Positions 13,396 to 49,500 of a stretch of DNA of 64,000 nucleotides are shown here, piece after piece. The stretch lies in the NCBI GenBank assembly GCA_965220745.1, contig CBDCQT010000005.1:96001-160000 (forward strand), in the 5' to 3' direction. The notes beneath the pieces are model-generated. The model was given only the letters and a program-made list of their open reading frames with translations. It was not told the DNA's origin and made no database searches. Position numbers and translations under genes: made by a program. How positions within the stretch are numbered: the stretch's first letter is position 1; each line of letters opens with the position of its first letter. This DNA is from Alphaproteobacteria bacterium. GTDB taxonomy: Bacteria > Pseudomonadota > Alphaproteobacteria > UBA828.

Positions 13396-13433
13396 GGTCG
13401 TCTCTCCCTCTGGTCATGGACCTGTATCGGCGC

Positions 13434-13459
13434 GGGCGCCGGTACTGTCACCGGCGCCC
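13434..13459. other. 10-bp stem-loop in the leader of the TorT-like gene
   Basis: GGGCGCCGGT-actgtc-ACCGGCGCCC perfect inverted repeat. Confidence 0.5.
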
Positions 13460-13539
13460 ACACAATCACGTCTCCGTGTGGAGGCATATTACGGTCGCGC
13501 GACGAAAGCGCAAATGCCCATTGCCCCCCATTTGGCTGG

Positions 13540-32013: not shown

Positions 32014-32340
32014 ATGCCGAAGCGACTGAGCGATGCGGAGCGGCGCGGCTTTCGCGAGCAGGGCTACTTCGGGCCGCTCCGCGTTATGAGCGCGGGCGAG
32101 ACACAGCACTACCGCGCGGAGCTGGAACGCTTCGAGCGGCGCTGGCCGGACGAGCGCCACATGCTCGATCAGGGTGCCTCGCTGCTCTGCCCCTGGATCG
32201 ACGAATTCACACGCCTTCCTGGTCTGCTCGACCCGATGGAGGACCTGCTCGGCCCCAACCTTCTGGTCTGGGGCGTCTCGCTCAGGCTCAAGGAGGCGGA
32301 CGGCAGGACCTTCGCCGGTTGGCATCAGGACACCGCCTAA
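32014..32340 (+). pseudogene. Phytanoyl-CoA dioxygenase (PhyH) family gene, 3'-truncated at the island boundary
   Basis: Motifs F..QGY, LLGPNL and GWHQD, then a stop after only 108 aa. The distal His and Arg of the fold are absent. Confidence 0.8.
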
Positions 32341-32458
32341 CGCACCTTCGGTGCTAACATTTTGAAACAGGGTCGTTTTTTCTCTCCATGTTTGTTGCAT
32401 CCGGACGGATCGGGAACTCCGCCGTGCCCCGGCTGCAACCGCAACCGGGAGAGACGGC

Positions 32459-33577: not shown

Positions 33578-33580
33578 ACC

Positions 33581-34738
33581 ATGGCAGGACCGAAACGCGT
33601 GCGCCTCACCGACGCCGCCGTGTCTCGCCTGCGGCCTAGTGAGCGGGAATATACCGTGTGGGATACAAAAGTGCGCGGGCTCGGGGTCCGGGTCCGATCC
33701 ACCGGCGGAATGAGCTGGGTCTTCCTGCGGCAAGACGCGAACGGATCGAGACGCGTGTCGCTCGGCCCGGTGGAGACCGCGAGCGTCGCCGAGGCGCGCC
33801 AGGCGTGCCTCGTCCGGCAGGCCGCGCCTGAACCGGAGGACAGGACCGCTCCCAAGCGTGCCGTTCCCCTGTTGCGCGACTTCGTCGCCGGCGAGTGGAA
33901 GGAGGCCAACTTCGACAGATACAAGCCCTCGTCCAAGAGCGGCTTCCGGGCCCTGCTCGACGCCCGCATCCTGCCGGCCTTCGGCTCGAAGCGGCTCGAC
34001 CGCATCGCTCCGACCGAGATCAGGCGCTGGTTCGACGATTTCAGCCGCACCGCCCCCGGCAATGCCAATCACGGTCTTGCTCTCCTGCGGCAGATCCTGA
34101 ACTTCGCCGGCGCCCGCGGCTACCTCGACACCAACCCGGCTCGCGACATACAGAGAAACCGGCGCCCGGTGCTCACCCGCTTTCTGTCGCGCGAGGAAGT
34201 CGGCCGTCTACACCGCGTGCTTGACCGGCAAACCGGGAGGGACCAGCGGCAGCAGGCCGACATCATACGCCTGCTGCTGCTGACCGGATGCCGCAAGGGC
34301 GAGATCGTGCAGCTCCGCTGGTCGGAAGTCGACGACGGCCGCCTGATCCTCCAGGAGAGCAAGACCGGGCGGAGGACGGTTCCCCTTAGCACGAAGGCCC
34401 GTGCGGTTCTGGAGCGTCAGCCGCACGGGACAAGCCCCTTCGTCTTTCCCTCGCCGCGCGATCCGTCGCGGCCGCGCAGCCGCAACCTCGCTCTCTGGTA
34501 CCGGGTGCGGTGCGAGGCCGACATCGAGGACGTGCGCCTTCACGACCTGCGTCATACGGTGGCGAGCCACGCGGTGATGAACGGCGTGCCGGTGCCGGTC
34601 GTGTCCCGGCTGCTCGGCCACTCCAATATACGAATGACGCTGCGCTACGCCCACCTCGGAGACCGCGACATCGAGCGCGCCGCCGAAACGGTCGGACAGG
34701 CGATCGCCGCGATCACGAACGGCCAGGACGAGACTTGA
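33581..34738 (+). CDS. Tyrosine recombinase/integrase with N-terminal arm-binding domain (copy 2)
   Basis: Arm-domain motif VWD...GLGVRV; catalytic TGCRKGE, SKTG, HDLRH, LLGH and TLRY. Starts 3 nt after copy 1. Confidence 0.93.
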   Translation: MAGPKRVRLTDAAVSRLRPSEREYTVWDTKVRGLGVRVRSTGGMSWVFLRQDANGSRRVSLGPVETASVAEARQACLVRQAAPEPEDRTAPKRAVPLLRDFVAGEWKEANFDRYKPSSKSGFRALLDARILPAFGSKRLDRIAPTEIRRWFDDFSRTAPGNANHGLALLRQILNFAGARGYLDTNPARDIQRNRRPVLTRFLSREEVGRLHRVLDRQTGRDQRQQADIIRLLLLTGCRKGEIVQLRWSEVDDGRLILQESKTGRRTVPLSTKARAVLERQPHGTSPFVFPSPRDPSRPRSRNLALWYRVRCEADIEDVRLHDLRHTVASHAVMNGVPVPVVSRLLGHSNIRMTLRYAHLGDRDIERAAETVGQAIAAITNGQDET

Positions 34739-34880: not shown

Positions 34881-35513
34881 TTGAGCGAAGCGAGCTACGT
34901 GCCACCGCCTGCCGACGAACTCATGGCCTGCCTCGACGCCTTGGAGCGGTTTCTTCATGACGACACCCTGCCGCCGCTAATCCATGCCGGCCTCGCACAC
35001 GCACAGTTCGAGGCCATTCATCCGTTTCTCGACGGCAACGGCCGTGTCGGCCGCCTGCTCATCACTCTCCTGCTGGTGCAGCGTGAAGTGCTGCCGTCAC
35101 CGCTCCTCTATCTGAGCGCATATTTCGAGGAGACGCGCGAGGACTACTATACCCGTCTGCTCGCGGTGACGCGGGAGGGGGCGTGGGAGAAGTGGCTCAA
35201 CTATTTCCTGCGCGGCGTCCGACTCCAAGCCGACGACGCAATCGATCGCATGGAGGAGATCGACGGCCTGTTCGAGGATTGGCGGGAAGAGCTGGCTGGC
35301 ATTCAATGCGGGCGACCGGAGAGGGTGCTGCGCCCCTTCGTCGAAAATCCCTATTGGACGGTGGGCGGGATCGCGAAAGAGCTGGATGTGGCCTATACGA
35401 CGGCTCGGCGCGCCATCGACCGGCTGGAGATGGCCGATGTTGTCTCACCCGTCGGAGACGCAAGACGCAACCGCGTCTATTGTGCACGTGAAACGCTCGA
35501 AATTCTGATCGCC
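34881..35513 (+). pseudogene. Fic family protein, N-terminally truncated and 3' end interrupted
   Basis: Intact HPFLDGNGRVGR motif and a C-terminal wHTH-like region. Begins abruptly at the internal YVPPP motif. The ORF reads through a mini-element to 35672. Confidence 0.7.
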
Positions 35514-35605
35514 TGTTGCTCGGCGTGCAATTGTGACCCCCCAGTATCGAGCCACTTCAATAGCTTATCGCGCCATTCGGCGCGCAACCCACGTGCCGAG
35601 CAACA
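35514..35605. mobile_element. 92-bp miniature inverted-repeat element with an IS21-like end
   Basis: Perfect 11-bp terminal inverted repeat TGTTGCTCGGC / GCCGAGCAACA. The left end continues GTGCAATTGTGACCCC, similar to IS21-family ends. Confidence 0.55.
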
Positions 35606-35851
35606 CTTCTTGAGGTCTGGTTGGTCACGCCCACGACATTGCCATGGAGGACGCTTGGCCTGGGGGTCATGAAGCGCGACACGGTTGCCGGGGGCGGCAG
35701 AAGATCGATCATGGGAGGGAGCGAAGCCGCGAAGCAGCGAGCACCCTGTCGCGATGAAGGCGTCGGGCTTTGTAAGCTCGTCCGAGAAGTGGCGAACCCG
35801 ACCGCCGGACTGCTGAACCGGGCCGCGACTGCGGCTGCGCTAATGAGACGG

Positions 35852-37351
35852 TCAACCGGCGGCCAGGTGATGCGCGACGCGCAGTGCTTGTGCAGCGATG
35901 GTGAGAGAGGGGTTTACGGCAGCTGAACTCGGTAGAAAACTGGCATCAACGACGTACAGGTTTGGGTGGTCGAAGCTCCTGCAAAAGGGATCGAGTGCCG
36001 CCTTCGCGGGATCGTTACCCATCCGAACAGTGCCGCACTGATGGGACGGTGCGCCGCTGTCGAAGGGCTTGGTGAGAATGAGCTGGTAACCCGCGCGGCG
36101 AAATATGCGGTGCATGCGATCGACGAGGAGCCCGTGGGCCTTCAGGTTAGTCGGCCGCCAGTCGAGGACGATGTGGCTGCCCTCCAGCAGGACGCGGCTC
36201 TCCGATGACGGCAGATCCTCGCTCATGAGGTACCAATCGAGCGCTCGTCGACAGACCGGACGAAGCGCAAACTCGGGAGCCGGGAATGGAAGATTTGCCG
36301 CCAGTATTGGCGCGGAGACCTTGCCCAGGAGCTGGACATTGCCCAAGGGTACGCCTGCCTCATCATCGGCGAGGTAGAAGTCGTTGATTGCCAACGTCTT
36401 GGCGTGAACCGTGTCGTAACTCTGGCGGACGTCGACAGCAATCATCGCCGTCGCGTTGTGATTCATGAAGTAGCGCCCGACCAGGCCCGCGCTGTTGGCG
36501 ACGCCACCCTGCCCGTTACGCCGGTCTGAGCGCAAGAGAATGACTGCCGAGTTGACGGCGCCAGCCGCGAGGATTGTCGTCCTAGGGCGTATACGGTGCC
36601 CGGTGTTGTTGCGACGATAGACGACGCCGGTGACGTTCTTGCCACGCGGATCGACCTCCAGTCGCTCGACCTTGGCCCCCGTCACAAGGCGCACGTTCGG
36701 GAACTCTAAAGCCCTCGCAAGCGGCCCGGTCTCCGCATCGATCTTCCCGCTGAACGTGTCCGGCACAGCGTCCCACGGCGTGGGGGCCCGCCTGAGCCAC
36801 GCCTTGACGTCGACCGATAGCGGCAGCGGTGCGGGATGCAGACCCTGGCGACGAAGACGCTCGGCCGCGTCCTCTACTTGAGGTTCGTGGGGGACGGGTG
36901 GAAAGGGATAGTCCTCGGAGTGGTACGGCTCGGTCGGGTCGTCGCCAAGCTGGCCGCGCACGCTGAACAATTTCTCGGCCTGGCAATACCACGGCTCGAG
37001 TTCGTCGTAGCCGAACGGCCACGACTCCGTGATCCCCTCCAGGTGGTCGTGCGCCTCGAAATCCTCGGCGCGAAAGCGGTATAAGACCGCGCCGAAGAAT
37101 TTGGAGTTGCCGCCCACATAGTAGTAGTTGCCCGGGTTGAACGGCCTCCCGTTGCCATCGAGCCAGGTCTCATCGGGACGAAACACGCCACGCCTGAAGA
37201 TCGCGGCGAGGTCGCGCGTCTCCGGCGTATCCCTCAGCCGTTCACCGCGTTCCAGAATCACGATTTCGGCACCAGTGGGCGCGAGGCCAAAGGCCGTCGT
37301 CGCGCCGCCGATACCGGAACCGACAATGACGAAGTCCGGTAGACCACCCAC
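35852..37351 (-). CDS. GMC family FAD-dependent oxidoreductase
   Basis: Motifs GSGIGG, VGGNSKF, LAAGAVNS, GRYFMNH, HQCGTVRMG and VNPSLT. Confidence 0.92.
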   Translation of the reverse strand: MGGLPDFVIVGSGIGGATTAFGLAPTGAEIVILERGERLRDTPETRDLAAIFRRGVFRPDETWLDGNGRPFNPGNYYYVGGNSKFFGAVLYRFRAEDFEAHDHLEGITESWPFGYDELEPWYCQAEKLFSVRGQLGDDPTEPYHSEDYPFPPVPHEPQVEDAAERLRRQGLHPAPLPLSVDVKAWLRRAPTPWDAVPDTFSGKIDAETGPLARALEFPNVRLVTGAKVERLEVDPRGKNVTGVVYRRNNTGHRIRPRTTILAAGAVNSAVILLRSDRRNGQGGVANSAGLVGRYFMNHNATAMIAVDVRQSYDTVHAKTLAINDFYLADDEAGVPLGNVQLLGKVSAPILAANLPFPAPEFALRPVCRRALDWYLMSEDLPSSESRVLLEGSHIVLDWRPTNLKAHGLLVDRMHRIFRRAGYQLILTKPFDSGAPSHQCGTVRMGNDPAKAALDPFCRSFDHPNLYVVDASFLPSSAAVNPSLTIAAQALRVAHHLAAG

Positions 37352-37390
37352 GGTCTGTCGCTCACGGTCTCGCCGTGGCTCGATCAGGTC

Positions 37391-38521
37391 CTACGCGACC
37401 GTCGGCCCGTCCACGCGCTCACCGCTGTCAACGTCGAACAGACAGGCATGCGCCATGTTGAAGTAGAGGCGGGTCGGCTCCGTCAGTGAGGCGGAAGTAT
37501 TGGGTCTCAAGCGGCTGACGGTCTCTCTCTCACCCAGTTGGAGAACGCCCAGCGTGTCTGCGCCGGTCGGCTCGATCAGGTCCAGAATGCAGTCGGCGGC
37601 GACAAACAGTCCTTCATCTGTCTCCCTGGGCTGCTCTTCGACAATGTGCTCAGGTCGAATGCCCAGGATCACGCCACGGCCGTTCAACGCCGGGTCGACA
37701 CGCAGACCGCAGGTCAGCTTCAGAGGCTGCTCATTCTCCCGCGTCACGGCCAACTCCCAGCCGCCGTCGGCCCCTTGGCCGAGCGTTGCAGGGATCAAGT
37801 TCATGGGTGGCGAGCCCATGAAGCCGGCGACGAAGACGTTCGCCGGGTTCGAATAGATTTCGTACGGGGTGCCTTGCTGCTGGATGATTCCGCTTTCAAG
37901 CACGCAGATCTGTGTGGCCATGGTCATCGCCTCGATCTGATCGTGAGTCACGTAGACGAATGTTGTCCCTGTTCTCTTGTGTATACGCTTAATTTCGCTA
38001 CGCATCTGAACGCGAAGCTTGGCGTCCAAATTTGAAAGCGGCTCATCGAACAGGAAGACCTTCGGGTCGCGCACCAGCGCCCGGCCCATCGCCACCCGTT
38101 GGCGCTGACCACCGGAGAGCTGACTCGGCTTGCGGCCAAGCAGGTGACCAATCTCCAGGAGCTCGGCGACGCGTTCGACAGCCTTCCGACGCTCGGCCCT
38201 GCGCACGCCCCGCATCTCGAGACCGAAGCTGATGTTCCCAGCGACTGTCATAGTCGGGTAGAGCGCGTAGGACTGGAAGACCATGGCGATGTCGCGGTCC
38301 GCCGGCGCTAGGTCGTTCACGACCCTGTCGTCGATCTCGATCGTGCCTTCGGTGATGTCCTCAAGCCCTGCGATCATGTTGAGCAGGGTCGACTTTCCGC
38401 ACCCCGACGGCCCTACAAGGACCAGGAACTCGCCGTCCCCGACCTCGATGTTGATGTCTTCGAGAACGCGAACGGTTCTGTCGAAGGTCTTACCGACTTG
38501 CTTGATGCTGAGACTGCCCAT
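37391..38521 (-). CDS. Sugar ABC transporter ATP-binding protein (MalK type)
   Basis: Motifs [24 protein letters not shown] and FMGSPPMN. Confidence 0.93.
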
Positions 38522-38571
38522 GATGTCGTCCTAGGGGCTCCGGCTCTCAGCGGATGTCATTTGCACGGTGT

Positions 38572-39444
38572 CTATCCCTTCACTGAGCCGCTCATGAGGC
38601 CGCGCACGAAGAAGCGGCCGGCAAAGATGTAGATGAGCAAGGTGGGAATGGCGGCGATGAATGCGCCGGCAAAGTGCACATTGTATTCCTTCACACCAGT
38701 CGAGGTGTTGACGAGGTTGTTGAGGGCAACCGTCATCGGATAGCTGTCGAAATCAGCGAAGGAGACCCCGAACAGGAAATCGTTCCAAATGTTCGTGAAT
38801 TGCCAGATCACGGAGACGATTATGATCGGGCCCGACGCTGGAAGCATGATCCGAAAGAAAATTCTGAAGAGGCCAGCGCCGTCTACCTTGGCGGCCCTCA
38901 CCAGTTCGTCGGGAAAGGCGATGTAGTAGTTGCGGAAGAACAGCGTGGTGAACCCGAGGCCATAAATCGTGTGCACGAGAATGAGACCCGGAATGGTGCC
39001 GGCCAGATGGAGAACACCGAGCACGCGCGCCATGGGAATGAGCACGATCTGGTAAGGAATGAACACGGCACCCAGAAGCGCGAGAAACACCAGCTTGTGC
39101 CCGCGAAAGGTCCACTTGGTCAGCACGTATCCGTTGATGGCACCGAGCATCGTCGAAATCACGACGGCGGGAACCACCATGAGAATGGTATTGACGAAGT
39201 AGGGGCGCAGTCCGGTGGGGTCGACGCCGACCCGCGCGGTGGACCAGGCCTTCACCCAAGGCTCGACGATCCACTCGTGCGGCAGGCTCATCATTCCGCC
39301 GGCCTGAATCTCGGCCAACGGTTTGACCGAGTTCACCAGCATGACATACATCGGGAGAAGGAACAGAATCGCGAACACGATCAGCGTGAAATATAGAAAA
39401 GTGCGAAGAATACGCTCTTCAGGAGAGCGTCTTCTGCGATTCAT
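38572..39444 (-). CDS. Glucose/mannose-type ABC permease (GtsC-like)
   Basis: Motifs FFRNYY, ELVRAAKVDGA, WQFTNIWNDFLFG and FVRGL..GSVKG. ATGA overlap at 39441-39444. Confidence 0.9.
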   Translation of the reverse strand: MNRRRRSPEERILRTFLYFTLIVFAILFLLPMYVMLVNSVKPLAEIQAGGMMSLPHEWIVEPWVKAWSTARVGVDPTGLRPYFVNTILMVVPAVVISTMLGAINGYVLTKWTFRGHKLVFLALLGAVFIPYQIVLIPMARVLGVLHLAGTIPGLILVHTIYGLGFTTLFFRNYYIAFPDELVRAAKVDGAGLFRIFFRIMLPASGPIIIVSVIWQFTNIWNDFLFGVSFADFDSYPMTVALNNLVNTSTGVKEYNVHFAGAFIAAIPTLLIYIFAGRFFVRGLMSGSVKG

Positions 39445-40319
39445 TTCTTGCCCCCGCGCAACTCCCAATAGATGTAGGGCACCACGAAAACTGCAATGAG
39501 TGCCAGCATGATGATGGCGCTAGAAGCGCCGATGGCCATCTGGTTGCGCGTGAAGGTGTACTGATACATGAAGACCGACGGCAACCAGGAGGAACGGCCG
39601 GGGCCCCCGCTCGTCATGACGACAATAAGGTCGTAGGTGCGAATGGACATATAGATCAGAATGACCAGGACACTGATGAACGTATAGCCAAGCTGAGGAA
39701 TAATGATGCGCGCGTAGAGCTGGAGCTTAGAAGCGCCGTCAACTCGCGCAGCCTTGAGAATTTCAGTATCGATTCCGCGCAGTCCGGCGAGGAACATGGC
39801 CATCACGAAGCCGGTCGTCTGCCAGATTGCGGCGATGGCGATGGTGTAGATCGCGAAATCGCGGTTCTTGATCCAGTCGAAGCTGAAGCTCGCCCAGCCG
39901 GCAGCATGCATGACGCTTTCGAGGCCGACGCCGGGGTCGAGAAACCATTTCCATGCCGTACCCGTCACGATGAAGGAGAGCGCCATCGGATACAGATAGA
40001 TCGAGCGAAAAGTGCCCTCCGCCCGAATCTTCTGATCGATCAGGATGGCCAGGAGCAACCCGAGCGCACAACAGACAACGATGTAAAGGGCGCTGAAGAG
40101 CACGAGGTTGACGAGGGCGATGTCCCACGCCCGCAGCGAGAAGAGCGCTTCATAGTTGCGGAAGCCGACACCGCCGTAGCTGGGCAGGATCTTCGAATCG
40201 GTAAACGAGATGACCAGGGTGAAGGCGATGAAGCCGTAAACCCCGGTGATGACCAGTAGGACGCCGGGCGACAGAACAATCTGGGGCAGACGGGCTTTCA
40301 GGATTGAGCGAACACGCAT
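39441..40319 (-). CDS. Glucose/mannose-type ABC permease (GtsB-like)
   Basis: Motifs IDQKIRAEG, LYPMALSFIVTG.AWKW and AARVDGA. The start may instead be TTG 40355. Confidence 0.9.
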   Translation of the reverse strand: MRVRSILKARLPQIVLSPGVLLVITGVYGFIAFTLVISFTDSKILPSYGGVGFRNYEALFSLRAWDIALVNLVLFSALYIVVCCALGLLLAILIDQKIRAEGTFRSIYLYPMALSFIVTGTAWKWFLDPGVGLESVMHAAGWASFSFDWIKNRDFAIYTIAIAAIWQTTGFVMAMFLAGLRGIDTEILKAARVDGASKLQLYARIIIPQLGYTFISVLVILIYMSIRTYDLIVVMTSGGPGRSSWLPSVFMYQYTFTRNQMAIGASSAIIMLALIAVFVVPYIYWELRGGKK

Positions 40320-40475
40320 CTCAGCCGGCAGCCCCTTCGCCCGCGTAAGGTGCAAGCATTGTGGGCGCTGCGGGTGACGTCAAGGGCGGATGCCACCCCG
40401 CAGCGGGCGGAAAAGCGGGCAAGCCGCCCGCACCGCAAGGAATTGCGGCGCGAGCGATCGGCCCGGTGGCCGTGA

Positions 40476-41726
40476 CTACAGCTTGGCTAGCGCCACCCCT
40501 TCCGCCATTTCTTCGACGGCCTCCTCTGCGTTCAACTCGCCGTTGAAGTAAGCGGTGACCGCGTCGGTAAAGGCGTTCTTCACAGCAGCTCTGTTGGTAT
40601 GGCTCAGTCCTTGCGAACCTACGAGAGTGCCGTTTGCGTTTGCTTCCTTGAGATGGGCAATACCCTTCTTGCCGCAGTCGTCGAATGCCTCGTCGGTGAC
40701 GTCTATTCTGGCCGGCACGGAGCCCTTGACGATGTTGAAGGCGACCTGGAACTCAGGATCCAGGATGGCGGACGCCATCTTGGCCTGCGCCGACTGACGC
40801 TCCTCGCCGACGTCGAACATCGCGAACTGATCGGCGTTGAAGGTCACATGGCCCTGAGTGCCGGGCACACGGAAGCACAGAAAGTCGTCTCCCGGCACCT
40901 TGCCCGCGTTGATGAACTCGCCCTTGGCCCAGTCGCCCATAATCTGGAAGGCAGCCTCGTCGTTGATGACCATGGCCGTCGCCAGGTTCCAGTCACGACC
41001 TGAGAAGTTCTCGTCCACGAGTTCGCGGAGCTGTCCCATGCGCCCCAACGCCTTCAGCATCGTATCGGAGCGGATCGCGTCTTCGTCAAGGTCGATGAAG
41101 ACTTTCTTGTACCATTCTAGGCCGCCGGCCGAGAGGGCGACGGAATCGAACGTGGTGATGTCCTGCCAGTGTTGACCGCCATAGGCGACACCGACGAAGC
41201 CTGCGTCCTTCGCCTTCTGGGCGACCGCGATGAACTCCTCCCAGGTCTCCGGCGGCTCGGTCTGGCCGATCGCGTCGAACACACGCTTCGACGCCCAGAC
41301 CCAGTTGGTGGAGTGCACGTTGACCGGCGCCGAAACCCACTTGCCGTCATGGGTCGCGAAGAATTGAAGTGCCTCCGGAATGAGAGCTGTCCAGTTTTCG
41401 CTTTCGGCGACCTCGTTCAGGTTTCCGAGGGCTCCCTGCTCGGCCCACTCGAGAATGTCATAGCCAAGCATCTGCACGGCGGTCGGCGGATTGCCCGCCG
41501 TGACCCGCGCACGCACGGCCGTCATGGCCGCCTCGCCGCCACCGCCAGCAACGGGCATGTCATTCCAGACGACTCCCTGCGCCTCCAGTTTTTCCTTGAG
41601 AACGGATACCGCGGCGGCCTCGCCGCCCGACGTCCACCAATGAAGCACTTCGACCTCGTCGGCTGCGGTGGCGGCAGCCGGAATCGCCATCGTCGACATG
41701 GCTAGGATGCTGAGGAATCGTTTCAT
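40476..41726 (-). CDS. Glucose-type sugar-binding protein (GtsA-like)
   Basis: Signal peptide; motifs [39 protein letters not shown] and KGSVPAR. Confidence 0.9.
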
Positions 41727-41855
41727 TTTGAGCTCCCTCGTTCGATCTCTGATGCCTGTGCCACGATGATTTCCGCCGTGGCGCGTCAGGTATTGTCGGG
41801 ACCCGGGTTCAGCCCGCTCCCTATGAGGCGAGTTTGCGAGCCAGTTCGGAGAAAC

Positions 41856-41917
41856 TCAATTTCGCAAGGCGTTGAAATATGGCGCAGTATTGCGTACTCT
41901 GTGCGACATAGCGCATA
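41856..41917 (-). promoter_or_regulatory. Conserved regulatory block, copy 1 (upstream of the sugar-binding protein gene)
   Basis: Ends in TGCGAAATTGA on the coding strand; 39 of 62 positions identical, ungapped, to 44898-44959. Confidence 0.65.
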
Positions 41918-41932
41918 AAACTGAGGGTCTAC

Positions 41933-42724
41933 ATGGACGAGGCGACCCGTCGTGTGGCGACCGAGAACATCCGGAGGCTCGTCCGCGCGCGCGGTAACAT
42001 CTCCCAGGTTTGTCGGCGCCTCGGCATCAACAGGCAACAGTTCAACAAGTATCTGACCGGCCAACATCTCCCCTCTCAGCGAAATCTGAACCAGATCTGT
42101 GCGTTCTTCGGCGTGAGTTTCGCCGATCTCATATCTCCGGACATGCAAGTTCCGGAAACGCTTCATCCGTCCGAGTACCTCCAAGGCTACAAAGCGTTCT
42201 CCTCTCTAGGGATGATCCAAGACGTGATCGGGAGGTCCGATCGGCGTCGGTTGCGCCAGTTCGAAGGCGTCTACGAGAAGTATCACTATTCGTCAATCTA
42301 CAGGGGTGACATCGTTCGAGCGGTCACGCAAATCAGCCCTTACGAGGACATCTATGTCTACTCCAATCTTGAGCGTTTCCCAAACAAGGACGATCCAAAG
42401 AAGCACGACTACGTTTTCAAGTATCACGGCATCGTATTTTTTGTTGACGAGAGATTATTCATGATGGACATTGAGAAAGTCCAAAAGAACGAACTTACCT
42501 TTTCAATTTACACCCCTATTGCCCGGAACCCGGTGAGGTTTTTTTTCGGCGTAACTTCGGGTGTTGCCTCTAATCTCTATCGCGAGCCTTATTCGTCGCG
42601 CTCTGTGCTGGACTTCCGAGGAGCCGTGCCGTCGACCAAGGACGCCCTGCGTCGAGCAACCGTTGTGACACCCGACGATCCGTCGATTCCGGCCGAAGCG
42701 CTGGAATACCTGAACAGCCGCTGA
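41933..42724 (+). CDS. XRE-family HTH transcriptional regulator with C-terminal putative sensor domain
   Basis: HTH region ISQVCRRLGINRQQFNKYL.G...PS..NL..IC.FFGV; divergent from the ABC operon. Confidence 0.88.
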   Translation: MDEATRRVATENIRRLVRARGNISQVCRRLGINRQQFNKYLTGQHLPSQRNLNQICAFFGVSFADLISPDMQVPETLHPSEYLQGYKAFSSLGMIQDVIGRSDRRRLRQFEGVYEKYHYSSIYRGDIVRAVTQISPYEDIYVYSNLERFPNKDDPKKHDYVFKYHGIVFFVDERLFMMDIEKVQKNELTFSIYTPIARNPVRFFFGVTSGVASNLYREPYSSRSVLDFRGAVPSTKDALRRATVVTPDDPSIPAEALEYLNSR

Positions 42725-42812
42725 GGAGAGGCGGCTGCCCGCGCGCAGTCGGGGCCGGCGGACGTGGCGGTCGAAGGAAGGCCTGACGTTCGATCCCGGA
42801 CTGCAGCAGTGA

Positions 42813-44615
42813 TCAGAAGTGCTGTTCCAACGCCCGGTTCATGGCGTAGTCCGCCTGCTCCTTCTCGTAGTAGGCGGGCGAGGGGAAATCCCACCAGCCG
42901 GGTGTGAACGGGCCGGCGGCATCACGCGAGGTCATGACCTCGACCAGGGCCGGGCCACCGCAGGCGAGCGCGCTTTCCAGCGCTGGCTTCAGGTCATCGT
43001 CATCGTCGATGCGCCAGCTCTCGACCCCAAACTGCTTTGCGAGGCCGGAGATGTCGGCGCTGTAGGGCTCGCCATTGCCGCCATCCTGGTTGAACTCCGA
43101 TCCGATGTGACGCCCCATGAATTTGCGCTGACCGCCCCTGATCGACATGTAGCCGCTGTTGTTCTGCACCAGGATAACGACGGAGAGATTGTTCATCGCG
43201 GCGACCCCGAGCTCCGGTGCCGACATCATGAAGTCGCCGTCGCCGACAATCGAAACTACTTGCCTGTCTGGGCACGCCAGCTTGGCGCCCAGCGCTGCGG
43301 GCACGGCCCAGCCCATCGGTGAGAACGAGCCCGACGTAAGATGCGTGCGAGGATGGTAGACTGGGAACGCTTGTTTGACGGCTCCTTGGGTGTTTCCCGA
43401 GCCGACGGTGACGATCCCTTCCCGGTCCATAACGTCGCGGAGGACTTTCAGGGGGCGTTGCGACGTGAACGGTGCCTCCGTCGAATCCCGCCGCGGTGCG
43501 AGCATTGCCTCCCATTCGGCTTTGGCGCTCGCGATGTCCCCGAAAAAGGTCTCTCGGCTCGCGAGCGCCTTCGACGACTGAAGATCGGAAATCGATTGCA
43601 CCATCGCCTCGAGCGTCACGCGGGCATCAGCGACGATGCCGACCTCCGTCGGATAATTCTTGCCGATCTCGTGATGATCGAGGTCGATGTGGATCAGCTT
43701 GCCAGGCGGAATGGAGAAGCTGGCACCCTTGCGATAACTGGACGCGGACCAGTCAGTGAAGCGGCAACCCACCGACATCACGACATCGGCGCACGCGGTG
43801 ATGTTGTTGCCGCAGCTTGTTCCCGTCTGTCCGACCGCGCCGATACAAAGCTCGTGATCTTCGCGTATCGCGCCCTTGCCGTTCCATGTGAATGAAACGG
43901 CGGCACCGACCTTCTCGGCAAGTTCGGTAAGCACCTCGCAGGCTCCCGACAGAATTGCACCGCCGCCGGCACAGATCACGGGACGTTTTGCTGAGAGCAA
44001 GAGCTCCACCGCCTTGTCGATCGCTCGAGGGTCAGGATAGCTCACTCCGACCGCCATCCGCTTGTCGAGCGGGTGAACCGTGACATCGGCCGTCTCACAC
44101 TGGAGGTCCATCGGCAACTCGACGTGAACGGGACCGGGACGACCCGACAGCATGGTGTTGAAGGCGCGGTGCATGACGAAGGGGATTTCATCGACGCGCA
44201 TGGGCTTGTAGGAGCGCTTCGTCACCTGCTCGATGATGTGCGGGAACGAGTTTTCATTCTGCCGCTCCAGCTCCTGCATCACGCCGTGGCCCTTCATGTG
44301 CGTGGCTGGGCCACCGTTGATGTAGAACGCCGCCGTTGAGTCCGCGTAGCACGTGGCGAGTCCGATCACGGTGTTGGTCGCGCCCGGCCCGACCGATGTC
44401 GTGCACGCCATCGGCGTCCCGCTGGCTCTGAAGTGTCCGTCCGCCATGTGAATGGCGCTCTGTTCGTGCATGACCTGAATGAACGGAATCTCGCTTCCTT
44501 CTTGAAGGAATGCATCGAGCAGGCTCCAGTTTCCGTGTCCAGGAATGCCTGCGAGGTAAGTGATTCCGTACTCCTTCAGCGCGCGAGCGACGATTTCGCC
44601 ACCGGTTAACTTCAT
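42813..44615 (-). CDS. ThDP-dependent enzyme, IolD-like
   Basis: GIPGHGN (compare IolD GIFGHGN), HEQ, SVGPGATN, GRPGPV and GDGDF. GGAGG RBS before ATG 44615. Confidence 0.85.
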   Translation of the reverse strand: MKLTGGEIVARALKEYGITYLAGIPGHGNWSLLDAFLQEGSEIPFIQVMHEQSAIHMADGHFRASGTPMACTTSVGPGATNTVIGLATCYADSTAAFYINGGPATHMKGHGVMQELERQNENSFPHIIEQVTKRSYKPMRVDEIPFVMHRAFNTMLSGRPGPVHVELPMDLQCETADVTVHPLDKRMAVGVSYPDPRAIDKAVELLLSAKRPVICAGGGAILSGACEVLTELAEKVGAAVSFTWNGKGAIREDHELCIGAVGQTGTSCGNNITACADVVMSVGCRFTDWSASSYRKGASFSIPPGKLIHIDLDHHEIGKNYPTEVGIVADARVTLEAMVQSISDLQSSKALASRETFFGDIASAKAEWEAMLAPRRDSTEAPFTSQRPLKVLRDVMDREGIVTVGSGNTQGAVKQAFPVYHPRTHLTSGSFSPMGWAVPAALGAKLACPDRQVVSIVGDGDFMMSAPELGVAAMNNLSVVILVQNNSGYMSIRGGQRKFMGRHIGSEFNQDGGNGEPYSADISGLAKQFGVESWRIDDDDDLKPALESALACGGPALVEVMTSRDAAGPFTPGWWDFPSPAYYEKEQADYAMNRALEQHF

Positions 44616-44728
44616 GATTTCCTCCGTGTGGCCTTGCGCAAGGCTCGAAGCCGCGAGGGCGACGCCAAGACTGCGCCACACTCAGACAATGCCGATCCTG
44701 ATTAAAGGTCCCCAAGACCGGGATGTTG

Positions 44729-44791
44729 GTCAATTTCGCATCGGCGAATTTCTTATGCGGATTTACGCGAAGACCGCTAAAGTTCGCGTAT
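44729..44791 (-). promoter_or_regulatory. Conserved regulatory block, copy 2 (upstream of the ThDP enzyme gene)
   Basis: TGCGAAATTGAC on the minus strand (44729-44740), preceded by periodic GCG/CGC units. Confidence 0.6.
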
Positions 44792-44897
44792 GTTTCGGAA
44801 AACTTTCTTACCGACTTTGCGACCCGGCTTTCCCCAATGCCGTGTGCCGGCAATCGCGCATGCCGCGGACAACTTCTGTCCCGATGCTCCCAATTAC

Positions 44898-44960
44898 GAC
44901 GCACTATGGCGCGCTTTGTGCGCAAGAGAGCGTCAGAAAACAGGATTGTGCGAAATTGAC
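44898..44960 (+). promoter_or_regulatory. Conserved regulatory block, copy 3 (upstream of the cupin gene)
   Basis: TGCGAAATTGAC at 44949-44960, preceded by periodic GCG/CGC units. Confidence 0.65.
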
Positions 44961-45031
44961 CCAAGATCGTCTTGGGCGACACTCTACGACTGCGGTGGTC
45001 GTCCACCCCACCAGAAACGGGAGAACCCCGA

Positions 45032-45730
45032 ATGCCGTCGGATCGGAATGTATCGCGCGACTTGGCGTTCGCCGACAATCATCTCTCGGCGAAGCTGTTC
45101 AGCGATGTAGACCGTTTGGAAGCTGACGGTATCGTCGTCAACTTGTCTCCGCGAGCAATCCATGTGGACGGCGACGTCCGAACGCTAATCCAACCATGGC
45201 GCTCCACAATCGTGCGAGGAAACCGAATCCTTGAGGCGGAGCGCATCGCGGTCCTACGCATCGAGAGGCTTGAGAACCTTGGCGGCGTCATGTTCCGTGG
45301 CTGGGACTGGTTCGGCGATCTATATGCCGGGTTTCCTAGGCAAACGCCCTTGTACATGTCGCCGGTCGACATGGTCGGTCACACCGAAGAGGATCCTTTG
45401 GCTTTCACGCGGGAGCGCGAGAGTCGCGAGGAGCTCCATCCGTTTGATGTCGCGCTGAAGTGCTGGTGGTCGCCCAACGAGACGGATTGCTTTATTCACA
45501 ACGAGCATCCGTTCCTCGAAGTGCACACCCAGGTGCATGGTATGGGCCGCATGCAGAAGTTCCGCGAACGCGATGCGTCCACACTCTACGAAGACGTTGT
45601 CATGGCGCCAGGCTTCACCCATGAGCCGTTCTGCACAGTGGCGGGTGAGAAGGAATGGGCCTACCCTTGGCACCGCTACTACACGGACACGGAGAGCATC
45701 TGGCTCGCGATCGAATTGCACCCCGTGTGA
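45032..45730 (+). CDS. Cupin-like protein resembling the aldos-2-ulose dehydratase/isomerase (AUDH) cupin domain
   Basis: Motifs DCFIHNEH..LEVH, G.GRMQKF, PG.THEPF, YPWH and IWLAIE. GGGAG RBS before ATG 45032. Family recalled from motif pattern only. Confidence 0.6.
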   Translation: MPSDRNVSRDLAFADNHLSAKLFSDVDRLEADGIVVNLSPRAIHVDGDVRTLIQPWRSTIVRGNRILEAERIAVLRIERLENLGGVMFRGWDWFGDLYAGFPRQTPLYMSPVDMVGHTEEDPLAFTRERESREELHPFDVALKCWWSPNETDCFIHNEHPFLEVHTQVHGMGRMQKFRERDASTLYEDVVMAPGFTHEPFCTVAGEKEWAYPWHRYYTDTESIWLAIELHPV

Positions 45731-45797
45731 TGCGTTGGCGCGTTCCCGAGGATGTCTTGTGACGGCGATCGTTGGCGACCATACACGCCGAGGCCTG
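45729..45797 (+). pseudogene. Possible degenerate IS3-family transposase fragment
   Basis: DALARSRGCLVTAIVGDHTRRGL aligns without gaps to the recalled IS3 core pattern DALADGRRFRILAVVDDFTRECL. Confidence 0.35.
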
Positions 45798-45871
45798 CGC
45801 CGCGCCACGGCTCCTGAAATCACGCCCGCCTGATCCGTCCCGCTGCCCGCCGCTGACTCCGCCCCATCCGC

Positions 45872-45988
45872 TCACGGTCGCTCCGCTCCCGGCAGCGCGA
45901 CCGCCGCGCGCAATCCGCCTTCCGCGCGGTTCGCGAGCATGATGTCTCCCCCGTGGCCGCGCACGATGCTGCGCGCGATGGCAAGCAT
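45872..45988 (-). pseudogene. C-terminal remnant of a sensor histidine kinase (HATPase_c)
   Basis: LAIARSIVRGHGGDIMLANRAEGGLRAAVALP* with no upstream kinase sequence. Confidence 0.75.
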
Positions 45989-46526
45989 GGATGCGAGCAG
46001 GAACCCGGTGGTCCGCGCGATGTTCTCTCCAACGGGTCGGTCTACATCGTCTCTGGTGGACCCGATGGCGACTCTTGAAGGAGCCTGGGCTGCAGCCGAT
46101 TCCTGCATGAGCGATGTAATCGAGATCGCCCGCCAAGACCTCAAGATTGACAAGACAGCGACATTCCCCTGTCGGAATTCGGCTTCTCCCCCGGATGTTG
46201 CACTGCGGTAGGCACTATCCGACATGATTCCCACATTGATCTACTTGTAGTTCGCGGTCGCTTGGACTCCCGGTCAGGGCCGCGCCCCGATCCGTCGGGG
46301 CGACCTCGACTGCGACTTGTGTCCCTGGATTTTGTCGGCTGCAGCCACTATGTGTTTTGTGCATACCGCCTCCGGACCGAGTAGTCGGGCAAGCCTTCTA
46401 CCATGATCTCGAAAGCGAGCTTGCCTTCGTAAGTCCCGACATCATCCATCGCTTCGTCGTCCAGCGAGCCCCCCCAATCGATATGCAAGATCCGTTCGAT
46501 CTCCGCGGAATCCCGCCGCCTTCCAA

Positions 46527-49500
46527 ATGGTAGCCGCCGCTCACACTTCGGAGCGCGGCACGCCCTTCAAACTCCGCTGTCTCTCCATCGACCTTGAGGT
46601 GAGCAAGGACGACGGCCGCATCCACGCCTTCGGCGCCGTGCGCGGAGATACCGACCAAGGGCATTCCGGCAGCGGATCGACAGCGGCTCTTGCGAAGCTC
46701 GACGACATTGCCGACGGCGCGTCCTTCGTTCTCGGCCACAACCTGATCGCCTTTGACCTGCCCCACCTTAGGTCAGCGAAGCCCGACCTGCGGCTGCTGT
46801 CTCTGCCAACGGTGGACACGCTGCGTCTCAGCCCCCTCGCGTTTCCCCGCAATCCCTATCACCACCTGGTCAAGCATTATCAGGACGGCGGCCTCAAACG
46901 AGGCCGGATCAACGACCCCGAACTCGACTCCCGTCTCGCGCTGGAGCTATTCCGCGACCAGCGGAAGGCACTGCGCCGAGCGAAGCCCGACCTGCTTGCG
47001 GCCTGGCATTGGCTGACGACGCCGGAGTTCGGGGGCGTAGACAGCGCTCTCGACGACCTCTTCGCCGAGATACGTGGCGCGCGTCGCCCCACAGACGCCG
47101 AGGCCCGCGCCGCGATGGGCCGCCTGCTTGACGGCTCGGCCTGCGCGACCCACGGACGGGGGGCCGTGGCGGCCGCAGCGAACGCGCACTGGCCGTTCGC
47201 CTACGCGCTGGCGTGGCTCTCGGTGGCCGGCGACAACTCGGTGGTGCCGCCCTGGGTGCGTCACCAGTTTCCGGATACCGGGCGCCTCGTGCACTGGCTC
47301 AGGGATGCGGCTTGTACCGACCCCGCCTGCGGCTGGTGCCGTGAGCGGCACGACGCCCGCAAGGAACTGAGGCGCTGGTTCAATTTCGACAATTTCCGTC
47401 CGGAACCGGAGCACGACGACGGCCGCCCGATGCAGCAGGCCATCGTGGAAGAGGCGATGGCGGGCCGGCACGCGCTCGGCATCCTGCCCACCGGCACGGG
47501 CAAGTCGCTCTGCTACCAGATCCCGGCGCTCTCCCGCTACGACAAGACCGGCGCGCTGACGGTGGTGATCTCGCCCCTGGTCGCGCTCATGGCGGACCAG
47601 GTGGCGGGGCTGGAAGCGCGCGGCATCGACTCCTGCGTGACGGTCAATGGTCTGCTGTCGATGCCCGAGCGAACCAAGGCGCTGGACCGGGTGCGGCTCG
47701 GGGACGCAAGCATGCTGCTCATCTCACCGGAGCAGCTTCGCAGCCGCTCACTGCGCCGGGTTCTGGACCAGCGCGAGATCGGCGGCTGGGTGCTCGACGA
47801 GGCTCACTGCCTGTCGCGCTGGGGCCACGACTTCCGGCCCGACTACCGCTACGTGAGCCGCTTCATCCGCGAGAAGGCCGGCAAAGAGCCGATCCCACCG
47901 CTTCTGTGTCTCACTGCGACCGCCAAGCCGGACGTGAAGGAGGACATTGCGCGGCACTTCCGCGAGAAACTCGGCATCGAGCTCACCATCTTCGATGGCG
48001 GCGCCGAGCGCGATAATCTCGACTTCACGGTGATCCAGACCACGGGCGGCGAGAAGTTCGCCCACATCAGTCAGGTGCTGGAGTCCCATCTGCCGCCGGA
48101 TACCCAGGGCGGCGCCATCGTCTATTGCGCGACGCGCCGGCGCAGCGAGGAGGTGGCGGAGTTCCTGCAACTGAAGGACGTGGCGGCCGAGCACTTCCAC
48201 GCCGGCCTCTCGCCGGAGATCAAGAAGGACGTGCAGCGGCGCTTCATCGGCGGGAAGCTGCGCGCGATCGCGGCGACCAATGCCTTCGGCATGGGCATCG
48301 ACAAGAAGGACGTGCGGCTGGTCATTCATGCGGACATTCCCGGCTCGCTGGAGAACTATCTGCAGGAGGCAGGCCGCGCCGGGCGGGACCGGAAGGCTGC
48401 GCGCTGCGTGCTGCTCTACGCGCCCGACGACGTGGAGCGCCAGTTCGGCATGTCGGCGCGCTCGCGGCTCACCCCACAGGAGATCCAGGGCGTGCTTCGG
48501 GCGCTCCGCAACCTCGACCGGAAGAAGCGCTATGGCGGCGACGTAGTGGCTACCGCCGGCGAAATCCTCGGCGAGGATGAGGAGCACGCCTTTGTCCGCG
48601 ATTCCGCCACCGACGACACCCGCGTGCGCACGGCCATCGCCTGGCTGGAAGAGGCCGAGCTGCTGAGCCGCGAGGAGAACGTGGTCCACGTTTTCCCTTC
48701 CTCGCTGCTGGTGGATTCGGTGGAGGAGGCCCGCGAGAGACTGGCGCGGGCGAACATCGCCGACGCCTATCGCCGCCAGTTGCTGCGCATCGCCACCGAG
48801 ATCATCCAGGCGGGCAAGGACGAGGGAATCACCACCGACGACCTGATGGCGGCCTCCGGGCTATCCCCCGAAGGCGTGCGCGGCGCCCTCTACGACCTCG
48901 AACGCTTCGGCATCGCCACCAACGAGACCGCGATCACTGCGTTCGTCCATGCCGGCATCGAGCGCTCGTCGCAGAAGCGGCTCAAACAAGCTGCAGAACT
49001 GGAGATCGCGCTGATCGCGCTGATGCGCGAAGCCGCGTCGGACCAAGGCAAGGGCGATACCGCCGTGCTGCATCTACGCGTCGCCGCGCAAGCTCTCCAG
49101 GACGCGGAGCTGGCCAATCCGCTGCCGGAGCGGCTCTGGCGCATCGTGCGCGGTATTGCCTACGACGGCCGCGGCGAGGACGGCGCCGCTGGCAGCCTCT
49201 CGGCGCGCAAGCTGGATGCAGAGACGGCGCGGATTACGCTGCGGCGCGAATGGGACAAGCTCGAAGAGACGGCACAGCTTCGGCGCGAGGCCGCCGGGCA
49301 AGTGCTGAAGCACCTGCTCGCCCGCCTACCGAAGGGACGCCAGGGCACCGACCTGCTGGCCGAGACCAGGCTCGGCAAGCTGCTGCAGGCGATCGAGGCC
49401 GACATCGCCCTCAAGGGCAAGGTCAGGTATCCCGAGAAGCTTCTCGACCGCGCGCTGATGTGGCTGCACGAGCTGGAGGTGATCCGCCTCAACAAGGGCC

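Follow-up and report, generated by a model that had tools for sequence, protein, structure and literature searches.

1-Deoxynojirimycin (DNJ) is the nitrogen analogue of 1,5-anhydroglucitol, and neither ring opens as a hemiacetal. Among the routes described for related compounds, myo-inositol catabolism proceeds through a dehydrogenase (IolG), a TIM-barrel dehydratase (IolE), hydrolytic ring cleavage by an enzyme dependent on thiamine diphosphate (ThDP; IolD) and a cupin isomerase (IolB). In the route from glucose via glucosone to cortalcerone, pyranose 2-oxidase, which is a GMC enzyme, is paired with aldos-2-ulose dehydratase (AUDH), and the cupin domain of AUDH converts ascopyrone M to microthecin. 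Here we describe an eight-gene cassette that combines a GMC flavoprotein, a ThDP-dependent enzyme, an AUDH-like cupin, an XRE-family regulator and a CUT1-type ATP-binding cassette (ABC) importer. It is located at positions 35852-45730 of a 64,000-nucleotide stretch (the window; all positions below are those of the window unless a contig is named) that represents positions 96001-160000 of contig C5 in a 4.8-Mb alphaproteobacterial genome. We propose that the cassette is a catabolic module that spreads horizontally and is controlled by the XRE regulator, with a ring-locked 1-deoxy hexose analogue, most likely an iminosugar of the DNJ type, as its substrate, and we assign to this reading a probability of about 50%. 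The next candidate is the oxygen analogue, either 1,5-anhydro-D-glucitol or 1,5-anhydro-D-fructose. A sequence of import, oxidation, isomerization and ThDP-dependent ring opening is the best reading of the gene content, from which we infer both the substrate and all chemical steps.

The closest described gene set is the DNJ degradation cluster of Pseudomonas fulva ZJU1 (genes 3029-3037), in which growth on DNJ induced a set of adjacent genes (Zhang et al., PNAS 2024, PMC11494336). According to that report, the cluster encodes an MFS transporter (3029), a GMC oxidoreductase (3030), a thiamine pyrophosphate-binding protein (3031, the 1,788-bp ilvB gene), a ThuA-domain protein (3032), a LacI regulator (3033), a GabP permease (3034), a hypothetical protein (3035), a histidinol dehydrogenase (3036, hpsN) and a helix-turn-helix regulator (3037). 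The MFS, GMC, ilvB, ThuA, GabP and HisD-like genes were up-regulated 85- to ~1000-fold on DNJ, with ilvB at ~1000-fold, and the gene for the hypothetical protein was up 12-fold; the two regulator genes are located among these genes. Deletion of ilvB abolished DNJ degradation, and the authors proposed from liquid chromatography-mass spectrometry that DNJ is oxidized and dehydroxylated and that its ring is opened, yielding aspartate semialdehyde and fumarate (PMC11494336).

The gene set considered here has in common with the P. fulva cluster the GMC protein, an acetolactate synthase (ALS)-like ThDP enzyme (ilvB), a HisD-family dehydrogenase (hpsN), a neighboring gene for a helix-turn-helix regulator, a hypothetical protein whose gene is induced, and an importer of its own (PMC11494336). 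The co-location of GMC, ThDP, HisD-like, regulator and importer genes that marks the P. fulva type was found across relatives of the cassette, and in the genome under study the HisD-like gene lies off the locus, on contig C10. The two systems differ in that P. fulva imports through MFS and GabP proteins and has a ThuA-domain protein as well as a LacI regulator (PMC11494336). The window instead encodes a CUT1 ABC importer, the AUDH-like cupin and a regulator of the XRE family with a predicted beta-barrel domain, and it lacks ThuA.

The eight open reading frames (ORFs) that an earlier note had recognized as a cassette from the sequence alone are all intact, and Pfam and NCBIfam placed them in families with the exception of the 232-aa ORF (Table 1).

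Table 1. Features of the cassette, its operator-like boxes and its left flank in the window
Feature	Position	Strand	Evidence
Transferable 10.08-kb block with eight genes	35664..45747	.	G011 match, run-contig ends, GC
Cytoplasmic GMC-family flavoprotein, 499 aa	35852..37351	-	Pfam GMC_oxred_C 69 bits, GMC_oxred_N 40.2 bits, both above cut-offs
ABC transporter ATPase, UgpC/MalK type	37391..38521	-	NF008653 454.6 bits vs cut-off 432; Pfam ABC_tran, OB_MalK
CUT1 permease, GlcU-like	38572..39468	-	BPD_transp_1; best NCBIfam ABC_arch_GlcU 148 bits, under cut-off
CUT1 permease, GlcT-like	39441..40355	-	BPD_transp_1; best NCBIfam ABC_arch_GlcT 118 bits, under cut-off
Periplasmic solute-binding protein (SBP), glucose-binding type	40476..41726	-	SBP_bac_1; PDB matches
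Operator-like box TCAATTTCGCA, copy 1, SBP/regulator intergenic	41856..41866	+	Exact match
XRE-family regulator with C-terminal beta-barrel domain (predicted)	41933..42724	+	HTH_26, HTH_3, HTH_31 at residues 17-68
ThDP-dependent enzyme, ALS/IolD superfamily	42813..44681	-	TPP_enzyme_N, M, C, 95-137 bits
Operator-like box TCAATTTCGCA, copy 2, ThDP/cupin intergenic	44730..44740	+	Exact match
Operator-like box TCAATTTCGCA, copy 3, inverted vs copy 2, ThDP/cupin intergenic	44949..44959	-	Exact match
Stand-alone AUDH bicupin-domain homologue (predicted), 232 aa	45032..45730	+	AlphaFold2 fold, family profile matches, gene context
Flank: tandem tyrosine recombinase genes, 372 + 385 aa	32459-33577, 33581-34738	+	Phage_integrase, Arm-DNA-bind_3
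Flank: 5'-truncated fic gene	34881-35672	+	Covers only positions 148-354 of 361-position SoFic model

The cassette is a discrete transferable unit. A counterpart of the block that carries it, with 98% identity, is located at G011:C3:1439402-1449485 in a second genome of the genus (G011). The flanking DNA is unrelated there, and both the left and the right flank of the window map elsewhere in G011. All eight proteins of the block are 98.4-100% identical to their G011 counterparts. The same limits were obtained from an independent run (X5), in which contig matches end at 35664 and 45744, and from base composition, with a GC content of 0.56-0.64 within the block versus 0.67-0.70 outside. The block ends 17 bp past the cupin gene, and at this place G011 instead has a HisD-like gene. 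The cassette-type cupin gene was found in two of the 21 genomes of the genus, and near-identical copies of the block occur in several sponge, coral-reef and biofilm metagenome runs.

The cupin is one of the components that set the cassette apart from the DNJ cluster of P. fulva. Its 232-aa sequence had no match in Pfam, NCBIfam or PDB, and there was no precomputed Pfam domain for the 120 family members listed from a word-indexed search. The family comprises 545 proteins at E<=0.001 in that search and 184 representatives of 50%-identity clusters in an exhaustive one. For its AlphaFold2 (AF2) model (pLDDT 96.5, pTM 0.92), Foldseek placed the AUDH entries 4a7z and 4a7k at the top, with a query-normalized TM-score (TMq) of 0.64-0.67, and the other listed bicupins at 0.34 or less. 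In VIA-align, 212 of the 232 residues were aligned on residues 454-733 of AUDH (Z 17.1, root mean square deviation 3.2), and the best entry other than AUDH, 3fjs, had Z 11.5 over ~100 residues.

In a profile search against PDB, AUDH ranked third with a non-significant E of 5.5, a match that serves for motif register only; in this alignment the family motifs W...HNxH..FxExH..GTGR and YPWH stand opposite residues 612-650 and 701-713 of AUDH. Residues W91, H156, E163, H165, G170, G172, Y211, H214 and W224 are invariant in an alignment of 50 family sequences, and the candidate metal-site residues H156, H159, E163, H165 and H214, which vary little or not at all, fall on HNH..FCEIH and YPWH of AUDH in the same non-significant profile match. 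The Pfam AUDH_Cupin model matches 26 of these 50 proteins at E<=1 (best 2.1e-5), and an Atlas query with the cupin returned a cluster named for AUDH_Cupin with a score of 0.95. Judged by its predicted fold and by the matches of its family, this protein is homologous to the bicupin domain of AUDH, as the earlier note had suspected from motifs.

A further link is provided by a plasmid of Streptomyces sp. NBC_01022 (locus L082), on which a gene for a 39% identical cupin is directly followed by a gene that matches AUDH residues 19-429 at 1.4e-76. AUDH carries a VCBS propeller (PMC8023676), and by their sequence matches the cupin and propeller genes of the plasmid are a split AUDH. In this region (L082, 10687-16328) the pair is flanked by wecB on one side and by acyltransferase and alpha/beta hydrolase genes on the other, with genes for an FAD-binding protein and MFS transporters upstream, and its context looks biosynthetic rather than catabolic. 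A tblastn search with the Streptomyces propeller (1e-3) found no AUDH propeller in the genome under study or in 69 related alphaproteobacterial loci; therefore the 232-aa protein is the homologue of one AUDH domain and not an AUDH.

When compared with AUDH of Phanerochaete chrysosporium (4A7K/4A7Y/4A7Z), the window protein shares the bicupin fold and the aligned H-N-x-H, F-x-E-x-H, G-T-G-R and Y-P-W-H motifs, and it has a GMC flavoprotein as a partner, as AUDH has pyranose 2-oxidase. In contrast, it consists of the cupin domain only (232 vs 900 aa), has neither the propeller nor the lectin domain, and is 14-15% identical. Its context, which includes a ThDP enzyme, is catabolic, whereas the context of AUDH is antibiotic formation; the glucose to glucosone to cortalcerone route is cited in PMC11650716. 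By analogy with AUDH, the cupin is likely a metal-dependent isomerase or dehydratase acting on a keto or enol ring intermediate. The genome under study (G000) also has an orphan cupin paralogue that is 82% identical and has no cluster partners (G000:C13:140008-140703, corresponding to L003 12009-12704). It lies near genes for a seryl-tRNA synthetase and a hybrid histidine kinase, which give no functional clue. Orphan paralogues of this kind (81-82% identical) are present in four of the 21 genomes of the genus and also in two metagenome-assembled genomes (L004 and L005).

In order to define the conserved gene set, we used a scan of species-representative genomes that yielded 69 loci, all of them alphaproteobacterial or labelled Pseudomonadota, among which 48 are full-length (>=20 kb). 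Genes were counted with identity and coverage thresholds set per family. The genes of the cassette co-occur in these loci, so that the conservation of the neighborhood, which had been proposed as a check, was observed. The regulator is present in 63 of the 69 loci (45 of the 48 full-length ones), GMC in 56 (45), ThDP in 55 (40), a HisD-like dehydrogenase in 52 (41), a TIM-barrel protein in 45 (33), the ATPase in 43 (34), a GFO-family protein in 38 (31), the SBP in 37 (30), a second GMC protein in 27 (18), a GH3 protein in 24 (18) and an aspartase-like protein in 14 (10). ThDP, HisD-like and GMC genes occur jointly in 38 of the full-length loci, and the six loci without any of the three are orphan-paralogue loci and short contigs. 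The description of the cassette as self-contained was not sustained, because the relatives carry further core genes, for example the HisD-like one.

Several individual loci add to this picture. On a plasmid of Rhizobium sp. WYJ-E13 (L084, 2279-18243), ThDP, hisD and GMC genes are accompanied by genes for an aminotransferase and a PIG-L deacetylase, which stand directly upstream of a 47.6% identical cupin; this context hints at an N-acetylated amino substrate. In Ensifer canadensis pT173c (L083), the gene after the cupin (12758-13993) encodes a 411-aa fusion of a xylose-isomerase-like TIM barrel with a glyoxalase/VOC domain and is followed by an aspartase-like gene. Plasmids of haloarchaea (Haloterrigena, Haladaptatus, Natrinema and others) encode ThDP proteins 42-45% identical to that of the window.

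The second characteristic component is the ThDP enzyme, which is 68-78% identical in the 55 related loci that have it. Its true start is likely the ATG at 44615, since the resulting length of 600 aa matches annotated homologues, and the GDG-X(25-26)-NN cofactor motif is present as GDGDF...NN from residue 480. The best NCBIfam score was obtained with an ALS model (NF004919, 375.7 vs a cut-off of 866), and the scores for ALS TIGR00118 (362.4 vs 538.35) and for IolD TIGR04377 (294.6 vs 715) are likewise under the cut-offs. Thus both a plain acetolactate synthase and a canonical IolD, which had been named beforehand as outcomes that would speak against a new pathway, were rejected under every curated cut-off. 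In a six-frame search of the genome, this enzyme is the most IolD-like sequence (294.3 bits; the next has 196), and no sequence over 715 bits, that is, no canonical IolD, was found. A role in sulfonate metabolism (2,3-dihydroxypropane-1-sulfonate, DHPS, or Xsc), prompted by the pair of HisD-like and ThDP proteins, was considered and rejected, as Xsc scored 272 bits against a cut-off of 620 and there were no sulfur-related neighbors.

The likeness of the ThDP enzyme to IolD raises the alternative that the cluster degrades a cyclitol or substituted inositol in an iol-like manner. In this case the GFO protein would correspond to IolG and the TIM barrel to IolE or IolI, while the ThDP enzyme would take the part of IolD and the cupin that of IolB. 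By analogy, the myo-inositol route does offer the same strategy for a ring that is unable to open by itself, and the ThDP enzyme is the most IolD-like protein of a genome that has no canonical IolD. In addition, the TIM barrel of the relatives has IolI as its best PDB match (1i60, 3.2e-12), their GFO protein matches IolG at 98 bits, and one locus has a gene of the inositol monophosphatase family in its vicinity. Yet no member of the cluster passes the iol cut-offs, with IolD, IolG and the other iol models all far under them. The cupin comes from another family, resembling AUDH and giving no IolB or KduI match in Pfam, and the SBP is of the glucose type. The cluster also adds GMC and HisD-like proteins, and neither these two nor the aspartase-like proteins are known to take part in inositol breakdown. 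We consider the cyclitol alternative very unlikely.

The GMC flavoprotein has as its closest solved relatives the catalytic subunit of FAD-dependent glucose dehydrogenase (FAD-GDH; 6a2u/8hdd, 1.6e-34) and the large subunit of fructose dehydrogenase (FDH; 7w2j). Its FAD motif begins at residue 6, with GxGxxG from residue 10, leaving no room for a signal peptide. In FAD-GDH, a Cys-rich motif of the CCGNNNCMPIC type binds a 3Fe-4S cluster; the aligned stretch of the window protein has zero cysteines at this place, and no genes for the small or cytochrome partner subunits of FAD-GDH/FDH are found in the cassette. The sequence suggests that the protein is likely a sugar-hydroxyl oxidase or dehydrogenase. 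We also considered cleavage of C-glycosides or 3-keto-glycosides (CarA/CarBC, BT2157-type) and rejected it: the GMC protein does not resemble pyranose oxidase along its length, and the GFO gene reaches only 46-51 bits with the levoglucosan dehydrogenase and disaccharide 3-dehydrogenase models of NCBIfam.

The SBP of the importer is of the glucose-binding type. Its PDB matches are 4r2b (1e-157), 8hqq (1e-103), 5dvf and 2b3b, a glucose-binding protein, and 8hqq is the glucose complex of SAR11_0769 (PMC11485210). In one RNA library, near-identical contigs cover the SBP gene only (40627-41706), a weak hint that does not establish transcription of the cassette; the remaining matches of this library are conserved ATPase segments from other organisms. 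The transporter type differs among the related loci, which have two CUT1 types (~40% identical mutually), an MFS transporter in Mesorhizobium and a CUT2 transporter in Ensifer canadensis. This variation indicates that the conserved part of the system is the enzyme core.

The connection to DNJ is made through two plasmids of Gram-positive bacteria whose gene content is of the P. fulva type. The plasmid of Priestia megaterium carries genes for LacI, ThDP, ThuA, MFS, aspA, hisD and GMC, and that of Arthrobacter sp. carries genes for MFS, a GFO protein annotated as 1,5-anhydro-D-fructose reductase (AFR), hisD, ThDP, a 389-aa GFO protein, ThuA, an amino-acid permease, GH3, DeoR and HAD. Their ThDP proteins are 64.6% (Priestia) and 59.7% (Arthrobacter) identical to that of the window; for the HisD-like proteins, compared with that of the genome under study, the values are 64% and 59%. 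A 388-aa GFO protein of Mesorhizobium is 71% identical to the 389-aa GFO protein of Arthrobacter. Four of the five IlvB residues named for P. fulva have counterparts in the 596-aa Arthrobacter protein, where E253, F258, W364 and Q411 correspond to E253, F258, W365 and Q412. An aspartase-like gene, found in the Priestia and Ensifer canadensis clusters in addition to the 14 loci counted above, fits a nitrogen-bearing ring that ends as aspartate or fumarate, as proposed for DNJ (PMC11494336).

Within these clusters the cupin and ThuA appear, on gene content, to be alternatives within one conserved module. Neither the genome under study nor any of the 69 loci has ThuA. Conversely, the 28 plasmid records matched in a search with the cupin do not include the Priestia and Arthrobacter plasmids, which thus lack the cupin. 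ThuA, together with the ThuB-like 389-aa GFO protein, holds the place of the cupin in the Gram-positive and P. fulva-type clusters and recalls the ThuA/ThuB pair of trehalose 3-oxidation. We infer that cupin and ThuA replace each other functionally; the two have unrelated folds, and the exchange would be a non-orthologous displacement.

A number of observations weigh against an iminosugar pathway in this genome. The DNJ-type clusters have ThuA and no cupin, while the alphaproteobacterial clusters have the cupin and no ThuA, and this split means that the two types may take different substrates. The orthology with the P. fulva cluster would rest on gene content, the bridging plasmids and residue numbers. 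Moreover, IlvB residue Q361 falls on K in the Arthrobacter protein, and the ThDP enzyme of the window has C257 where others have F. The P. fulva study treats IlvB as a DNJ-binding protein and reports no enzymology (PMC11494336). The check that had been suggested for the cupin, a search of 45032-45730 against the Pfam AUDH cupin model (PF18637, AUDH_Cupin), gave nothing at E<=10 for the window protein itself. The nearest characterized relatives of two partners, AUDH for the cupin and AFR for the GFO protein of the relatives, act on oxygen rings. Finally, the cassette is without HisD-like, GFO, TIM-barrel and aspartase-like genes, and no orthologue of the GFO or TIM-barrel genes was found in this genome at 1e-15, so that the pathway may be incomplete here.

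This last point bears on a second alternative, according to which this genome recently acquired the cassette without its HisD-like, GFO and TIM-barrel partners, as a stranded or incomplete copy on which a full pathway can no longer run. The end of the block directly behind the cupin gene, where G011 continues with the HisD-like gene, the lack of GFO and TIM-barrel orthologues, and the restriction of this cassette type to two genomes of the genus are in line with such a history. The HisD-like gene of the genome under study stands on another contig beside prophage genes, and its DNA is 89% identical to that of G011, compared with 98% for the block. However, the genome does hold a HisD-like orthologue, which is 67% identical to the copy in the Ruegeria cluster, and the Ruegeria-type loci have the same gene order as the window and likewise lack GFO and TIM-barrel genes beside the core. 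The eight ORFs, nearly identical to those of G011, and the three operator-like boxes are intact, and the block recurs almost unchanged in several metagenome runs from sponge, coral reef and biofilm. A stranded copy is therefore unlikely in our view. In its present location (G000:C10:10707-12774, L075), the HisD-like gene overlaps the start of an SDR gene of the glucose 1-dehydrogenase or KduD-like subfamily and adjoins genes for prophage capsid and tape-measure proteins.

The affinity of two partners to enzymes of oxygen rings leads to a third alternative, in which the module scavenges 1,5-anhydro sugars such as 1,5-anhydroglucitol, 1,5-anhydromannitol, 1,5-anhydrofructose or ascopyrones by oxidation to a 2-ulose, AUDH-like enone isomerization by the cupin and hydrolysis of a 2,3-dione by the ThDP enzyme. 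The cupin is a specific homologue of AUDH, the SBP is of the glucose type, and the GFO gene of the relatives has AFR as its best PDB match (2glx, 1.7e-39, 139 bits; the next at 1.3e-15), the same name that annotators independent of PGAP gave to an Arthrobacter neighbor. The AFR route of Sinorhizobium morelense and S. meliloti (2glx, 4koa) also overlaps in hosts with these loci, in the Rhizobiaceae. There would be a gap for such a pathway, since a 2025 review states that an aerobic oxidative route for 1,5-anhydroglucitol is undescribed (PMC12441222). On the other side, the only experimental link of the gene set is to DNJ, and the aspartase-like genes and amino-acid permeases of related clusters suggest nitrogen in the substrate. 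The similarity of GFO to AFR is moderate and the AFR-like gene is absent from the window and from the genome, and the AFR route as published, according to the review, leads via 1,5-anhydromannitol to mannose with an unidentified oxygenase and without a ThDP or cupin step (PMC12441222). We regard an oxygen-ring substrate as possible but doubtful. The scavenging of anhydrofructose-pathway products, as envisaged in the earlier note, thus keeps some ground in that DNJ and the anhydro sugar are nitrogen and oxygen analogues, but with DNJ as the sole experimental precedent (PMC11494336) it is probably not the leading candidate.

For the regulator, the model work was based on translations that began at extrapolated start positions. 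Residues 75-263 have no Pfam match, and AF2 (pLDDT 85.9) models the stretch 112-230 as an up-and-down barrel of eight antiparallel strands. The barrel gave weak lipocalin-type matches (E 5e-4, target-normalized TM-score ~0.4) and for this reason was assigned to no family. A cupin sensor of the XRE-cupin type was also sought in the C-terminus, with no Cupin_2 match at E<=10. About 48 positions are invariant over 36 orthologues, a degree of conservation suggesting that the C-terminal barrel is a new sensor domain.

A shared promoter motif had been noticed in the cassette, and this observation was borne out. The 11-bp box TCAATTTCGCA has exactly three exact copies in the window, all within the two divergent intergenic regions of the cassette. 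When one mismatch is allowed there are four matches in the window, a number reached in none of 100 shuffles. At the same tolerance the box occurs in 51 of the 69 related loci, and 75 of its 103 matches there fall inside upstream windows, defined as the 320 bp before cluster genes, that make up 10.5% of the sequence; as the 69 loci are kin, the binomial p-value of this enrichment overstates its significance. The box is found mainly upstream of the ThDP, regulator, cupin, GFO, second GMC and TIM-barrel genes. Through these boxes the regulator probably keeps the two divergent promoters repressed until a ligand occupies its beta-barrel domain.

If the substrate is an iminosugar of the DNJ type, the pathway could operate as follows. 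The glucose-type ABC importer would take up the compound, and the cytoplasmic GMC flavoprotein would turn a ring hydroxyl into a ketone, a step that in other clusters may be performed by GFO or ThuAB proteins. The AUDH-like bicupin, as a metal enzyme, would then dehydrate or isomerize the keto or enol intermediate, with the TIM barrel or ThuA in this role elsewhere. The ThDP enzyme would cut the ring C-C bond beside the carbonyl, in a reaction resembling those of IolD and cyclohexane-1,2-dione hydrolase, and the HisD-like dehydrogenase, encoded on contig C10 in this genome, would oxidize a hydroxymethyl or aldehyde group to a carboxylate. The products would enter aspartate and fumarate metabolism, with a C4 amino acid passing to the aspartase. 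A different conceivable task for an aspartase-type lyase would be to split a carboxymethyl-oxysuccinate ether, a compound not mentioned in the papers listed by a literature search. We offer as a tentative extension, which may well prove wrong, that cupin and ThDP enzyme constitute a new aerobic mode of ring opening for aza- and oxa-sugars, in which the flavoprotein forms the ulose, the cupin converts it to a 2,3-dione or enone and the ThDP enzyme cuts between C2 and C3. The module with either ThuA or cupin would then have spread horizontally in Alphaproteobacteria, Pseudomonas, Bacillota and Actinomycetota.

The surroundings of the block were also inspected, as the earlier note had described it as bounded by the scars of mobile elements. 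This holds for the left side, where the two tyrosine recombinase genes and the truncated fic gene are situated; on the right, no scar of a mobile element was found, and Pfam recognized nothing in the ORFs of 45750-46766. There are no tRNA genes in 28000-52000 and no convincing flanking direct repeats around the block. The recombinase pair (window 32330-34715) is multi-copy, matching over 40 sites in genomes of this genus with 65-90% identity, many of them in G004 and G011, and at least two more copies on contig C12 of the genome under study. Further to the right, a 1714-aa ORF (46527-51671) encodes a DEAD/Helicase_C module (residues ~300-620) fused to a UvrD-type helicase (~1095-1560), and its 5' part is 75-83% conserved in some of the genomes of this genus.

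Iminosugars such as DNJ are glycosidase inhibitors of plant and microbial origin and serve as drug scaffolds. The oxygen analogue 1,5-anhydroglucitol is used as a clinical marker, and toxicity of its phosphate is a feature of two neutropenia syndromes. Our literature search, largely outside subscription journals, turned up no publication dealing with a bacterial homologue of the AUDH cupin, with the alphaproteobacterial cluster described here or with the enzymology of DNJ degradation. One primary study of bacterial DNJ-breakdown genes was found, which contains one knock-out and no enzymology (PMC11494336). As for the oxygen ring, the 2025 review states that no aerobic oxidative route for 1,5-anhydroglucitol is described and that such an enzyme would be needed for a probiotic approach (PMC12441222). 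The gene core is already known from one published and genetically supported relative, while the cupin, the type of regulator, the operator and the proposed mechanism are new.

The locus names a conserved enzyme set that consists of a flavoprotein, an AUDH-like cupin or ThuA, a ThDP lyase or hydrolase and a HisD-like dehydrogenase. It also supplies a regulator together with a candidate operator box and points to tractable host strains, the carriers of the cluster including Paracoccus denitrificans DSM 413, Sinorhizobium fredii NGR234, Rhizobium etli CIAT 652 and Shinella zoogloeoides, and through it a previously unannotated protein family gains a fold and a likely reaction type. If the tentative extension to a new mode of ring opening is true, the module would provide the first defined enzymes for iminosugar catabolism, as well as the aerobic 1,5-anhydroglucitol-degrading activity that is missing according to the 2025 review (PMC12441222).

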